64,000 bases of DNA from a virus (IMGVR_UViG_2684622670_000009:1-64000); one strand, 5' to 3'. Counted from the stretch's first letter, positions 16,201 through 22,200 are shown. Program-made: the numbers.

Positions 16201-19200
16201 ATGACCAGTGAAACAGCATTGCTGTCACTTGGTCGTGGCAGCCCGGACCGACGATGAAGCATGTTTAGCTGGCCCAAATGTTGCTGGATAGTTTTTACTG
16301 CCAGACCGCGCGCCTGAAGATATAGAAGATAATCGCGAACATCTTCAGGTTCTGCGGGAAACCATTTCCGGTTATTCAACTTGCACCATGCCGCCCACGA
16401 CCGGCAAACGGACAGAAGCATTTTCCAGGTGTGCTCAGAAAACGCCTGGCGATCCCTGAACATGCCCATCAGGTTCTTGCGAACCTCATCACTCGTTGCA
16501 TCGACCGGCAATGCTGGCAAATTTTGGTGTACGGTCATTAAATTGGACATTTAACACTCAGATAATAGTTTTAAGTAAAGTGTACAGGATCGGCTCAGCC
16601 TTTACCTGTTTATGGTTTTCATCATAGAAACGCCAGCGACCGTGCGTGCGTTCTATTTTCTCTTCACCGCGATATAATGACAGTTGGTAACTATCACGCT
16701 CAAAGCCTTTTGCCCGCCAGTAACCACGGTTTTTCTCAAGCTCAAGATGAGTGGACACTTTAGCAGCTGAATATCCCATTTTTCACCTCTGATTGATTGG
16801 TAGTGCTAAGTGCGCTACGTGAAATCTGTAGGACTAACACCGCCAACTTTTCTCAGATTTTACGTAGCGCAATCTTGATCAAATGATCACTATTTGACCT
16901 GACAAGGTATTGAACTGTATGGATTTACAGGTAAATTGATCATGTTCAATAACCCTTAAGATAACTTCGTATAATGCATGCTATACGAAGTTATCAGGTC
17001 CGAAGAGGAGTTTACGTCCAGCTGCGCACAAAAATCAAGAATTATTAGAGCAATAAATTTTGAGAGAAAAATCCCACTCCACCAGCTAAAAACTGGATTG
17101 TTTTTCATAGCTGTTTGACAATTGCTCTAATAAATTATAGTTTTGCCGCCGTTACGTAATACGACTTTGGATTCACTATTTAATGTGTCTTCAGCGTTGT
17201 AGAGCGGCTCAGAAGGAAATGAGCAAACAGGGAAACCTTATACAACGGCATTACAGCTATGCATTGCTCATCTTACACACAGCGCAATGTTGTTAGATTA
17301 CCCCAGCATGGATCATGGGTGAAACAGTAGGTCAGAGCTTCAGGCTCTGTGTTGTCAATACAGTGAGGCATAATTATGGCTTTCATTCAACCAACCATCG
17401 ACGACGTTAGACATTGCTCTAACGCTTTATCTGTAGACCCTGCCGAAACCGACGCTGCCCGCGCCATTGCTGAACACTACTCAAAGATATCCAATCAGGA
17501 GTACCGCATCACCCAAGACGACCTGGATGACCTCACTGACACAATCGAATATCTCATGGCAACTAACCAGTTGGACTCACAATAAATGCACTAATAAATC
17601 TATTATTTTTGTTTGATCCCTCTATAATATAGGTCAGTAATGACCGGTTTTCTCAGCCGGGCGTTATTGACCATGTCAATTCTGGAGGAGGATCAATGAT
17701 AAATTATGTCTACGGCGAACAACTGTACCAGGAGTTCGTCAGCTTCAGGGATCTCTTTCTAAAAAAAGCTGTTGCACGCGCCCAACACGTTGATACAGCC
17801 AGCGACGGTCGTCCTGTACGCCCGGTTGTCGTTCTACCGTTCAAAGAAACTGACAGCATTCAGGCTGAAATTGATAAATGGACTTTAATGGCGCGGGAAC
17901 TGGAACAGTACCCAGACCTCAATATCCCAAAGACTATTTTATATCCAGTGCCTAACATCCTTCGCGGTGTGCGCAAGGTTACAACTTATCAGACAGAAGC
18001 TGTGAACAGCGTCAACATGACCGCTGGCCGCATTATTCATCTGATTGATAAGGACATTCGCATCCAAAAAAGCGCGGGGATCAATGAGCACAGTGCGAAA
18101 TACATAGAGAACCTGGAAGCAACAAAAGAGCTAATGAGGCAGTACCCGGAGGATGAAAAATTCCGTATGCGTGTACACGGCTTTAGCGAAACAATGCTGC
18201 GCGTCCACTACATCTCCAGTAGCCCTAACTACAATGATGGTAAATCAGTTAGTTACCATGTACCGCTGTGTGGCGTGTTTATCTGCGATGAAACTCTCCG
18301 TGATGGAATCATCATCAACGGTGAATTCGAGAAAGCAAAATTTAGCCTTTATGACTCTATAGAACCGATCATCTGCGACCGCTGGCCGCAGGCAAAAATA
18401 TATCGCCTGGCAGATATTGAAAATGTAAAAAAACAAATTGCCATCACTCGCGAAGAGAAAAAGGTTAAGTCAGCCGCATCAGTTACGCGCAGCCGTAAAA
18501 CCAAGAAGGGGCAGCCAGTAAACGACAACCCCGAAAGCGCGCAATAAATTATGCCCGGCATCAACCGGGCATTCTTCCATTATTCAGCCGCCACCGGTTT
18601 TAACAAGCCAGCATCGAGCAGTTTACGCGTCAACCACTGCTGGCCTTTACCCGTTAATTGAGGCGTCAACCGTATCTGGTAGCCATCTTCATCATCCAGC
18701 ACCACTTCTTTCACCGTGAAATACCCCGCGTTGATGTACTGCTGGAACGGCACATTTTTACGTCCACCGGACGCTATCAGGATGCCGTTCTCCCGTAACC
18801 AGGCAAACAGCGCGTTTTGCTTAAGTCCAACAACCTTTGCAAAATTTCCAATCAGGATCCCCTTGGCAACTGATACCCGGTCGGCAAAATCGACCTTAGG
18901 GGCGGCGGCCACCAGCTGCTGATTTAGCTGGTGGGCTTTCTGTTCCAGAAGTTGCTTTTGTTCAGCCAGTTCGGCAGCCAGACGCAGGGCTTCTGGAAGC
19001 GTCTGGGGGATTGTGACCGGTTGCTGTTCTTTTTGTCGGAAGTAGCTGTCTTCCAGTTTTTCAAAGAATGCCCATGCCTGATCGGTTTCGAGCATTTTAG
19101 CGTGACGGGCAGCGCCGCGTTCTGTCCAGAGAGTGAGTGAGCGGGCTTTGGGTGAGACTGGATTTTGTGAGTAGTTTAAAGCTACCCGCAAATTTTTCAG

Positions 19201-22200
19201 CTCATCGCCAATAACCTTGAAAAAGTGCTTCCCTTCAACAAAGCGCACTTTGTTCTCATGATGATTCTGGCGAATACGGATTGTTTCTGTCCCATACCCT
19301 TTAGCAAGAGTCTCGGTTGTCACTACACGCACCCCCTGCCACTCCAGAACGGGAATTTCATCAGGCTGATTTTGAGCAACCACCAGCTCCGATTCCTGAA
19401 CTGAAGTTGCATGAATTTTTTCTGATTTAACGTTAGTTGCTTTCATTCTGTGTGCCTCCTTGCGTGCTTCGGCTGCGATGGTTGCGTAATTCAGATGCCC
19501 CTGTTCGAGCAGGTATTCGCGGATATCAGACAACAGGATACGGTGAACCGCGTTCTTGTCCTTTCTCCGGTAAAGTTGTTTGGTGATCATGAAGTAGTTG
19601 GCAATAACGCCCGGTATATCCCTGATACTGATACAGGCAGTGTGCTGTTCAATTGCCTCGATCATCTCTTCACGGGTGACTAATGACGTTCTCATAGCCC
19701 CTCCTGAGCCGAAGCGTTAACAGGGAGGCACCAGTAACTGAGAGAATTGCGTGAATCAGTGGAAAAACGGGCAGAGAAAATACATGGGGCGTCAGGAAGC
19801 TGAGAGCGGGCCTCATCTTCTGTTGTTGCGATAACGAAGTGATAGTGACGTTTCTGGCAGGAGTAAAAGCGCCAGATAAATTCAGGGTGAGTTGGGGTAG
19901 GGATAGTAGCCATAATGGCAGCCTCCTTTTGCTAACTTAAGGAGCTACCGCGTGAGGTTCCAATCTCAATGGCGGTAGCACTGACTGGGTTGGAACTACC
20001 GGCGCAAAAGGGAACCGGCCTGCCTTTCGGCAGCCCAGCCAGCACTACCATTGATCTCGGAGCTATGTGCTACGTATGGCTGTGCGATGGCATGACACAA
20101 AAAAAGACGCTTTTGGCGTCTGTGTCGCCTTTTGCATTATCCGGGGTTCCAATCCCGGCACCCGTTTTAATGAGGTGCCTGATAAGCATAAACCGAAAAT
20201 GCCTCAAGGCGCAAGAGGTCAGGTTCAATGTAACATCGGCAGTCAAAAAAAACACAATTTATTAGAGCAAGTTTTTTACTCATTAAGCCATGCCAGAGCT
20301 TCATCAACCTGCGCTTCGTCTTCAACGCTAAGCACTTCATCCTGGGGAACATAGTTCGCCAACATAGCGAAACAATATGTATCCCAATGGTCCGGTGAGT
20401 GCAGGTTGAGTTTTTTCTTCATGTCTTCCTTTGACATCACCTTCCATTGACCTGCGGAATTTATCCCTACCGGTATCTTTGATGCTTCCTCTATAGTCGC
20501 AGCCCCCTTATCAAGCCGCATACGCCCTGATTTTACAGCTTCTGCCGCCTGAATATTCGCGAAAGCGCGCATATCGAAATAAAGGCTTTTATCTTCGCGG
20601 CTGTGCATCTTTTTACCCCAGCGGATACGCTGGACGGTAATACCATAGCGTTCGTACATCAGATCAGCCGTCGATTTCCCCAAGCCATCGCCATCAATAG
20701 CTATGGTTATGTTCGGGAACCGTTCTGGGTTACATTCTGCGAAAATCTTGGCGGCTAACTGCGTTTCTGTAACGTCTGTGTATTCCAGCATACGATAGTT
20801 GATTACACGGCGTTTATTTCGCTGGCCGGACACCATCATGATATTAATAACGGACTTATCTCGTCCTGTACCACCAGCAACGTCAACACATGCAACCCAG
20901 CCCCATCCTTTGGCAATCTTGACCTTTCGCCGCGTCGCCCGCTCAACCTCATCACGACCAAGAAGAAAACCATCTTGAGATTTGGGAAATTCCCCACGTA
21001 CTTTGATCATGTACATGGGGTTATCACGACCGCCATACTCCGCAAGTTTTGCTCGTATAAATTTTGCATCTACAAGCGGAGATTCTTCACTATTCAGTAC
21101 TATCGCAGTAAACAATCCATCAGGATTTCCCGGGCGAATAGCTAGTCTGTGGTGTGAATCGTAGAAATAGCCTGAAGGTCGCGTAGGCTGGGAAAGAAGC
21201 AGAATACGGTTATCCTTACCGGTCAGCGCACCTGTTATCACACTGAATGCTTTATCACTCACACCCGACGCTTCGTCGATGATATACAAGAGATGATCGG
21301 CGTGTTCACCAGCCAACGCCTCCTCATTTCCGGGGCGACAGGACTTTATCAATATTGTCCAAACACCCTTGCCAGTCACCTCAAAAAAAGACGTTTCTGT
21401 AAGAATGAAATACTTCGACAACCACGGGAATCTGCTAACAGCAGTAGCCCAATTGTTCTTTATGTATTTGAAAATACCATCAAGGACTTGCTGTCTTTTG
21501 TTAGCGACCAGAATGACGCGAGCGCCGGGGAAAAACATGATGAAGAGTATTGCAATGATACTCGTCATATCCGATTTACCAGTACCATGGCCGGAGGTCA
21601 CACTTGTCCAACTGCCGTCCTGCTGCGTGGACTCAATGATCTCATCCTGCTGCCAGGTTGGTGTCTTCCCAAACAACACATCAGCGGCCGCAATCCAGTC
21701 ATAACGATATAGCGCCACCAGCTCGCGCCAACGTGGGTCCGTTACGCAACTTCTGGCCATTAATCATCATCCCCGTACAGTTTGCGGGTAACTTCTTCGT
21801 CTTCCTCCTCGTCTTCGTCCAGATCCTGTTCAAGCCATGCTTCGTTTGATATGCCTTCCGCATCGACATCACCATAACCACCTGTATCGACGATATCGGC
21901 AATTTCTTCTCTACGATGCTCAATCCACAATGCGGCATCAGCGCGGCGACTGGCGGCCCGTTCTCGCGCGATTTTATCCAGATCTTCAAGTGATGGAGCG
22001 CCAGATGCTGTTTGGTTTTCCTCATCATCGGTATTGGTCTTAGGAGCACGCAGATCGGCTTTGATTTGCTCCAGCATCAGGGGCGGCACTTTTCCTCCAT
22101 GCGCCTCGATGAATTCAGCCGCTTCCAGCACTGACCAGTTATTTTCACGCTTTCGTTCGTATGCCAGCTTAACAATGCCAGCTTGCCCCATAGATAAAGC

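Follow-up and report, generated by a model that had tools for sequence, protein, structure and literature searches.

The DNA analyzed here is a stretch of 64,000 nucleotides (nt) from a viral genome (IMGVR_UViG_2684622670_000009:1-64000), which as a whole is called the window and which belongs to a P1-like phage-plasmid. Its C1 repressor is 98.9% identical to P1 C1.100, and the final 200 residues of its PacB are identical to those of P1 PacB. The convergent genes pacB and c1 are only 24 nt apart in P1; the corresponding interval of the window (18548-20275) is 1.73 kb long. It is very probable that this interval is an intact extra operon of the immI type, which runs on the minus strand and was inserted precisely where P1 has its 24-nt pacB-c1 spacer. 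The operon carries a gene for the antisense RNA C4 in its leader, followed by icd and ant. This c4-icd-ant module is real and almost certainly functional, and it is a common and partly already annotated variant of the well-known immI system, not a new kind of element. In the order of transcription, it consists of the following features.

20255-20271, minus strand: C1 repressor operator, CTTGCTCTAATAAATTG, the equivalent of P1 Op51/Oc4, 4 nt past the pacB stop codon
20227-20235, minus strand: putative extended -10 element TGtTACATT, P51a/P2c4-like, with a -35 region overlapping the operator (from conservation)
20185-20214, minus strand: putative constitutive promoter, P51b/P1c4-like and equivalent to the isrK promoter (TTGCGC-18 nt-TATGCT; start near 20178)
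20099-20178, minus strand: IsrK-type leader RNA with an intrinsic terminator at its end (Rfam isrK, RF01394)
20158-20141, minus strand: first hairpin, CCGGG-AUUGGAAC-CCCGG, which displays a1
20152-20146, minus strand: a1 target (UUGGAAC), in the hairpin loop
20135-20128, minus strand: b1 target (GCAAAAGG)
20121-20105, minus strand: stem of the leader terminator, with the U/T run to 20099 (terminator scan)
19968-20055, minus strand: C4 antisense RNA gene, 88 nt (Rfam RF01695)
20011-20004, minus strand: b' (CCUUUUGC), in the loop of the second C4 hairpin
19996-19990, minus strand: a' (GUUCCAA), single-stranded in the C4 multiloop
19943-19978, minus strand: second hairpin, presenting a2 (UUGGAAC at 19963-19957)
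19932-19925, minus strand: b2 target (GCAAAAGG; feature span 19922-19932), overlapping the icd Shine-Dalgarno sequence
19928-19922, minus strand: icd Shine-Dalgarno sequence AAGGAGG, 8 nt ahead of the ATG at 19913
19692-19913, minus strand: icd-like gene, 73 aa (homology to P1 Icd)
18580-19695, minus strand: ant1-like antirepressor gene, 371 aa, translationally coupled to icd via an ATGA overlap
19446-19444, minus strand: ATG of the nested in-frame ant2-like start (M84), with AGGAGG upstream at 19460-19455
18551-18572, no strand assigned: 9-bp GC-rich hairpin between the ant and c1 stop codons, terminator-like match ATGCCCGGTTGATGCCGGGCAT then AATTTATT

Genes and control signals of the operon

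The original prediction, made from the DNA sequence alone, had described a 73-aa open reading frame (ORF) coupled by ATGA to a 371-aa antirepressor with a KilA-C-type C-terminus, a C1 operator, a minus-strand intrinsic terminator and two hairpins with the same UUGGAAC, and all of these were recovered at their places. A complementary site put at 19988-19995 reads GUUCCAAC and lies at 19996-19989, one nucleotide away. Over 66 aa, the identity of the Icd-like protein to P1 Icd is 80% (E = 2e-41), and its homologue is named 'host cell division inhibitor Icd-like protein' by the Prokaryotic Genome Annotation Pipeline (PGAP). Taken as a whole, Ant is 55% identical to P1 Ant1; the figure is 59% for the N-terminal part and rises to 92% for the C-terminal KilAC part. 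Two domains were detected, C-terminal KilAC/ANT (PF03374, E = 4e-32) and ORF6N (PF10543, E = 3e-20). The internal Met84 aligns with the start of P1 ant2, and the nested Ant1/Ant2 arrangement is kept, with a predicted shorter product of 288 aa. The window module thus has icd and a coupled ant with nested starts and KilAC, as immI does.

Within the part of ant that encodes ORF6N, a segment of about 117 bp (19162-19278, minus strand) has 90.6% identity to over 100 Stx1/Stx2-converting lambdoid phages, which shows mosaic exchange of the ORF6N domain between phage groups. These matches were ruled out as homology of the regulatory module, since they are confined to that segment of ant.

For comparison, 79 IMG/VR loci with close Icd relatives were retrieved, most of which share the pacB-module-c1 context, and nine representative leaders were aligned; the pairing tests described below were performed on this alignment. 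The operator differs from the P1 operator consensus by two mismatches, and its core is unchanged in the nine aligned modules. Over the whole window, 17 C1-operator-like sites with three mismatches or fewer were found against 0.27 expected. Elsewhere in the window, two overlapping operator matches on opposite strands (47697-47713, plus strand; 47708-47724, minus strand), one of them perfect, resemble a bivalent operator.

As in immI, a C1 operator is located at the operon promoter, and alignment with P1 Oc4/P2c4 suggests that the two overlap. The sequence ATG-N-TACATT is invariant in all nine aligned leaders, including the diverged ones, and TGtTACATT is placed relative to the operator as in the annotated P1 P2c4. 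With regard to the constitutive promoter, the hexamers are kept as TTGCG(C/T) and TAT(G/C)CT in the diverged leaders, and the -10 hexamer ends 7 nt ahead of position 1 of the Rfam isrK model. A simple consensus promoter scan of the leader detected neither promoter. At the other end of the operon, the hairpin at 18551-18572 is probably a terminator or insulator between the convergent ant and c1.

C4 RNA, its targets and their recognition codes

The region 19968-20055 matched the Rfam C4 family over the full-length model (76.7 bits; gathering score 45). Its predicted fold (-46.4 kcal/mol, z = -5.5) has the topology of the Rfam family, namely, a long basal stem, two hairpins and a single-stranded multiloop segment. 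All of the 43 intramolecular pairs in the leader, 27 of which are in C4, are kept across the nine sequences, and ten of them (nine in C4) have changed on both sides. The score, the fold and the compensatory stem changes agree in placing a C4 gene in the operon leader, as in immI. It is the sole C4 of the 64-kb window; the Rfam search found no second one.

The a' and b' segments of C4 are perfect complements, 7 nt and 8 nt long, of a2 and b2 upstream of icd, where b2 lies on AAGGAGG. Moreover, a second copy of the targets, a1 and b1 (20152-20128), lies upstream of c4 and co-varies with C4. Both copies are features of immI. In the 64 kb, three occurrences of the bipartite motif TTGGAAC-N(1-30)-GCAAAAGG were counted where 0.03 would be expected, and all of them are in the leader, namely, a1b1, a2b2 and the complement inside C4. 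Nowhere outside the leader did the window contain this motif as a further C4 target. GCAAAAGG alone was not enriched in the window (8 occurrences against 3.3 expected).

These results bear on the antisense-controlled switch of immI type that had been proposed for the locus. The operator-preceded icd-ant operon holds good, supported by the 80% identity of Icd and the Rfam C4 match, but the hairpin-plus-terminator unit cannot be taken as c4. This unit is the IsrK-type leader, and the regulator is 19968-20055, which carries GUUCCAA and CCUUUUGC, so that the earlier roles are swapped. The two hairpins with GAUUGGAAC loops are the C4 target sites a1 and a2. The earlier reading overlooked that the complementary site lies inside the 88-nt C4 RNA gene.

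The leader at 20100-20178 (minus strand) matched the full Rfam isrK model with 62.4 bits (gathering score 50), and matched Rfam c4-a1b1 (RF03163) weakly with 23 bits. The P1 leader scored in reverse, 35 bits for isrK (below the threshold) and 51 bits for c4-a1b1 (above the threshold). This opposite scoring shows that both Rfam families describe one functional leader element in two sequence types. The 80-nt leader RNA folds into three hairpins, though with a z-score of just -1.7, and the last hairpin is a Rho-independent terminator, as expected for the IsrK family. This stem-loop was the sole terminator-type match within the leader in the scan; in the leader alignment its stem is invariant and its loop variable. 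The leader also resembles the family in that it is located upstream of a C4/CI-like RNA and an antirepressor and, judging from the co-variation, pairs with that region.

It is conceivable from this match that the IsrK-like RNA at 20099-20178 is the main regulator in trans, as in the Gifsy-1 model, and that the 'C4' is mainly an mRNA leader or a small ORF coupled to icd. In Gifsy-1, the short IsrK activates translation of the downstream antirepressor 139-fold in trans, and translation of orf45 matters (PMC4825925). A 39-aa ORF over C4 (19935-20051, minus strand) would be the equivalent of orf45; it matches Pfam Phage_ASH (PF10554, 32 bits), is labelled 'ash family protein' by PGAP in relatives, and is in frame with icd, into which it runs without a stop in the L005 lineage (L numbers designate individual loci). 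However, no coding signal was found in this ORF, since the substitutions between the window and L005 are distributed 16:13:19 over the codon positions without third-position bias. The peptides of the two are unrelated over long stretches, and in the C4 stems these substitutions compensate for one another. Further, the P1 equivalent stops after 14 codons, and the Gifsy-1 authors themselves noted a stable processed RNA, STnc1160, resembling P4 CI (PMC4825925). A model centred on IsrK is unlikely, and the two readings could both apply, with an IsrK-type RNA acting as activator and C4 as repressor.

We also considered a gene of the Ash protein family (PF10554) over C4, but rejected it because the amino-acid constraint expected for such a gene was not observed. 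The absence of codon-position bias, the free divergence of the peptides and the closed ORF in P1 make the RNA the preferred reading, and the ORF labelled 'ash family protein' by PGAP is here most likely the C4 RNA gene.

The hairpin presenting a2 shares sequence with C4, since the 3' strand of the C4 basal stem ends in 8 nt that also serve as the 5' arm of the hairpin. Thus the hairpin can form only in the unprocessed transcript, in competition with the C4 fold. Compensatory changes are seen in both of its stems between the window and the diverged L005 lineage: the outer one reads CUACCGC/GCGGUAG in the former and CCACCGC/GCGGUGG in the latter, and the inner one GAG/CUC and AAG/CUU, respectively. 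RNAfold also gave a hairpin hiding the icd Shine-Dalgarno sequence (GGUAGCUCCUU with AAGGAGGCUGCC). According to the alignment, the L005 lineage is unable to form it, and it was therefore left out of the mechanism.

In the nine-leader alignment, C4 pairs with both target copies, a1b1 and a2b2, in 100% of the cells. Seven of the 15 C4-target pairs have changed on both sides, for a1b1 and for a2b2 alike, and pairing fell to 50-56% when the partner was shifted by one column. It is evident that a1, a' and a2 change jointly in every sequence, and that b1, b' and b2 do likewise.

The window code is a = UUGGAAC and b = GCAAAAGG, whereas that of P1 is UUGACAG / GUUAGUG and that of P7 is UUAGCAG / GAUUGUG. 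Five codes were found in isrK-type leaders, made up of the a determinants UUGGAAC, UUGAGAC and UUGGCCU and the b determinants GCAAAAGG, GUCAAAGG and GUCUAAGG. At the pacB-c1 site, all four combinations of UUGGAAC or UUGAGAC with GCAAAAGG or GUCAAAGG occur. The codes (b', a') were counted in a first set of 88 loci, including those with P1-type leaders, which gave 12 codes, and the addition of kilA-side loci raised the number to 14. Cognate sites upstream and downstream of C4 were present for each of the first 12 codes, the set covered by this check, and non-cognate combinations gave short chance matches only.

P1 and P7 differ from each other at both determinants. In the canonical immI of JL22 (L085), C4 joins the a of P1 (UUGACAG) with the b of P7 (GAUUGUG), and is thus a natural recombinant of both classical immunity types (compare L002 and L089). 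The code differences together with this recombinant show that reshuffling of a and b is general in the family.

There are also signs of damage in some relatives, which might mean that the module came in by mosaic insertion and is now decaying or silent, without any present function. In L014, an ALIL pseudoknot (IS3-family frameshift element, RF01497, 121 bits; 3584-3700, minus strand) lies between icd and ant, and an insertion sequence has split the module. Moreover, ant is shortened in 673R5, several loci are without the ORF6N part, and the middle of Ant is a mosaic with the segment common to Stx phages. On the other hand, the ORFs of the window are intact, and the coupling, the Shine-Dalgarno sequences, the operator, the terminator stem and the C4 structure are preserved. 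The three-way compensatory change of the recognition sequences would be hard to obtain without selection on pairing, and the module is widespread. With ORFs and signals intact and the recognition sequences changing in a three-way compensatory manner, decay is highly improbable.

Distribution and relation to the canonical immI

The canonical immI maps between sim and kilA-repL; the module in the window is located between pacB and c1. The original prediction took this as a rearrangement, in which the single immI of the phage would have moved from sim-kilA to the pacB-c1 spacer. Because the window ends among the sheath and baseplate genes, about 3 kb before the canonical site, it cannot display that site directly, and one of 27 paired relatives (L062/L131) has no recognizable C4 on the kilA side. 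However, the three sequenced phages RCS47, JL22 and 673R5 carry the pacB-c1 module plus a canonical c4-icd-ant1 beside kilA, with codes that differ at both determinants. Among the 27 IMG/VR pairs (13 on the same contig and 14 in the same genome), a kilA-side C4 was present in 26, and in all of these 26 it differs from the paired pacB-c1 C4 in both a and b. The closest relatives of the window, L032 (99.3%), L017 and L050, are among the 26 two-module pairs. Moreover, the isrK-type leader and the similarity of only about 76-80% to P1 in icd indicate that the module is not a transposed copy of a P1-type immI. Relocation is thus quite improbable, and since the relatives carry both modules, the pacB-c1 module is regarded as an additional paralogue.

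The regulatory cassette itself moves between the two sites. In L077-L082, L045 and L038, an isrK-type leader with the window code is fused to P1-type icd-ant1-kilA at the canonical site. An isrK-type leader was found in nine of 74 kilA-side C4 genes (L090-L169), eight of them with the window code and one with the UUGAGAC variant. The homology between the leader and these kilA-side copies starts exactly at the operator, which shows the cassette to be exchanged between the sites.

L067-L076, L081 and L083 hold a third c4-icd-ant module, which has a leader of P1 type (c4-a1b1) and brings additional codes. It is present in some P1-like contigs at a distance of a few kb from the pacB-c1 module, on the far side of c1 and cre, though not in the window; L009/L083, L022/L076 and L053/L081 are pairs on the same contig that include it. 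In L071, two C4 genes are divergently oriented within 2 kb.

Of 842 PLSDB plasmids with matches, 289 contained the full 2-kb arrangement, as did 277 of the 5426 complete E. coli genomes and four phage records. Over the entire 2 kb, identity did not exceed 97.1% for any record in these phage, plasmid and E. coli collections. PGAP labels at the module are 'Icd-like protein' and 'KilAC antirepressor', with 'ash family protein' over C4, and in the record of RCS47 only 'ant' is annotated at the pacB-c1 site, and neither icd nor C4. An 'ant insertion' between pacB and c1 was noted for RCS47 and pTZ20_1P in a previous paper (Venturini et al. 2019, PMC6906374). In the open-access papers that we searched, we found no account of the C4 or IsrK elements of the module or of its recognition codes. 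The module is uncharacterized, partly annotated already and briefly noted in the literature.

The surroundings of the module in the window include the following gene calls and tRNA genes.

15519-16550, minus strand: cre
17376-17585, plus strand: coi
17696-18547, plus strand: c1
20276-21760, minus strand: pacB
21760-22953, minus strand: pacA
45239-45311, minus strand: tRNA gene
46964-47036, minus strand: tRNA gene

A tblastn search of the window found no other icd or ant, save a 12-aa Icd-like motif at 15271-15306 (E = 0.12). This motif, EHFVMNATEEEARR, which resembles the Icd core YHFVIATTEDEARS, is located in a 103-aa ORF beside cre (15157-15468, minus strand) and may be a shared small motif or a chance match. 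Just 44% of the region 1-15500 matches P1, P7 or other sequenced P1-like phages, which points to non-P1 cargo in the res/mod-darB region. In the phage tRNA region, a partial match to the Rfam model STnc100 (46058-46173, minus strand; 50.3 bits, gathering score 47) lies between the two tRNA genes.

Proposed mechanism and comparison with known systems

The operon most likely works largely as in P1 and P7. The constitutive promoter would yield mainly the terminated leader RNA and some read-through transcript. Transcripts reading through the leader terminator would be processed, freeing a C4 RNA of about 80 nt. In P1, the release of C4 from its precursor is attributed to RNase P. By analogy with P1/P7, the b' loop (CCUUUUGC) and the single-stranded a' (GUUCCAA) of C4 would pair with a2 and b2, occluding the ribosome-binding site of icd. 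Without icd translation, ant would be neither transcribed nor translated, and the antirepressor would stay silent while the prophage is repressed. In addition, C1 would shut off the second, operator-proximal promoter; in P1, both C1 and C4 are required for full repression of ant (PMC8198154). If C4 is lacking or outnumbered, as might happen when the element enters a cell without a matching C4, Icd may block cell division and Ant1/Ant2 may inactivate C1, again as in P1/P7. An Ant-C1 complex has been described (PMC8198154), and P1 Icd is reported to target FtsZ (PMC11897509).

The role of the leader RNA is the least secure part of this mechanism. By analogy with Gifsy-1 IsrK, the short terminated leader with a1 and b1 may pair with C4 or the C4 region, which would oppose repression or set the level of C4. 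In Gifsy-1, the pairs G28-C162 and G31-C159 were validated by compensatory mutation (PMC4825925). Accumulation of a short form, Hfq binding and activation of the antirepressor in trans by IsrK are known only for Gifsy-1 (PMC4825925).

Several points weigh against an intact, functional operon of this kind. Every mechanistic step is borrowed from P1/P7 and Gifsy-1, and both promoters are putative, suggested by conservation and by homology with P1 and isrK. The co-variation is drawn from few lineages and hence from a small number of independent events. A terminated leader with both targets would, as an excess decoy, titrate C4 permanently, so that stability or stoichiometry must matter, and the role of a1/b1 is unsettled even for P1. 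Moreover, the middle third of Ant is an ORF6N domain missing from P1 Ant1, which has KilAC only, and the identity of this middle part ranges from 62% to 100% between alleles. Owing to this replaced and variable part, binding to C1 is not guaranteed.

The C4/Ant circuit decides the silence of P1-type prophages and the co-existence of related phages, as in the heteroimmunity of P1 and P7, and P1-like phage-plasmids are now recognized as frequent carriers of resistance genes. The window code is unlike that of the kilA-side C4, so the two circuits should not cross-talk. Judging from these sequences, the module should be blind to the canonical immI C4 and thus represent an independent determinant of immunity specificity. 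About one third of the matched P1-like records have the extra module, always with a code unlike the canonical one, which suggests more immunity specificities than the textbook pair of P1 and P7.

Among the by-products of this analysis, the most interesting is the combinatorial diversity that the recognition codes show from site to site. This raises a tentative possibility that P1-like phage-plasmids carry two or three paralogous C4-icd-ant modules (pacB-c1, kilA side and near cre), each with its own two-part RNA address, whose a and b parts are recombined independently at each site. This would be a combinatorial, RNA-coded incompatibility and anti-immunity under diversifying selection, with the IsrK-type leader as a built-in C4 decoy that sharpens the switch. 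If so, the set of C4 RNAs in a cell would decide which incoming relatives stay silent, and the incoming Ant operons would decide which residents are induced. The codes, at least 14 with freely recombined a and b, also offer a natural set of orthogonal antisense-RNA/target pairs. The known mechanism of immI is unchanged by our finding.

Compared with immI of P1 (features as annotated in AF234172) and P7, the order of elements is the same (Oc4/Op51, P2c4/P1c4 (P51a/b), a1, b1, c4, a2, b2, icd, ant1/ant2). So are the Rfam family and fold of C4, the two copies of the bipartite target with the downstream b on the icd Shine-Dalgarno sequence, the ATGA overlap of icd and ant, the nested ant1/ant2 starts and the C1 operator at the promoter. 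The two differ in location, between sim and kilA for immI and in the pacB-c1 spacer for the module of the window, and in the leader terminator, which is tighter in the window (6-bp stem, 5-nt loop and U7) than in P1 (12-nt loop). The window-type module coexists with the canonical immI in relatives.

The isrK-orf45(STnc1160)-anrP region of Gifsy-1 also has an isrK-family leader small RNA with its own Rho-independent terminator and read-through into a region of C4/CI-like processed RNA (PMC4825925). It is also like the window in the translationally coupled antirepressor downstream and in the middle hairpin loop of IsrK, which pairs with downstream RNA. However, its output AnrP acts on AntQ and no icd homologue was described, whereas the window has icd and ant1/ant2 of P1 type, a C1 operator and a plasmid prophage. 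Further, the Gifsy-1 model invokes alternative structures of the mRNA instead of an antisense repressor released by processing. In P4 immunity (CI RNA; seqA, seqC), the regulatory RNA likewise belongs to the Rfam C4 family; it is cut from the leader of its own operon and has complementary sites upstream and downstream, an analogy also drawn for Gifsy-1 (PMC4825925). P4 CI causes premature transcription termination of replication genes (PMC4825925), and icd, ant and a C1 operator are absent. The insertion noted for RCS47 and pTZ20_1P is the same one at the same site; that of RCS47 is 92.9% identical over 2 kb, though with a different code (UUGAGAC / GUCAAAGG). In the records and in the paper, the insertions of RCS47 and pTZ20_1P are described merely as 'two short hypothetical orfs and an antirepressor' (PMC6906374).

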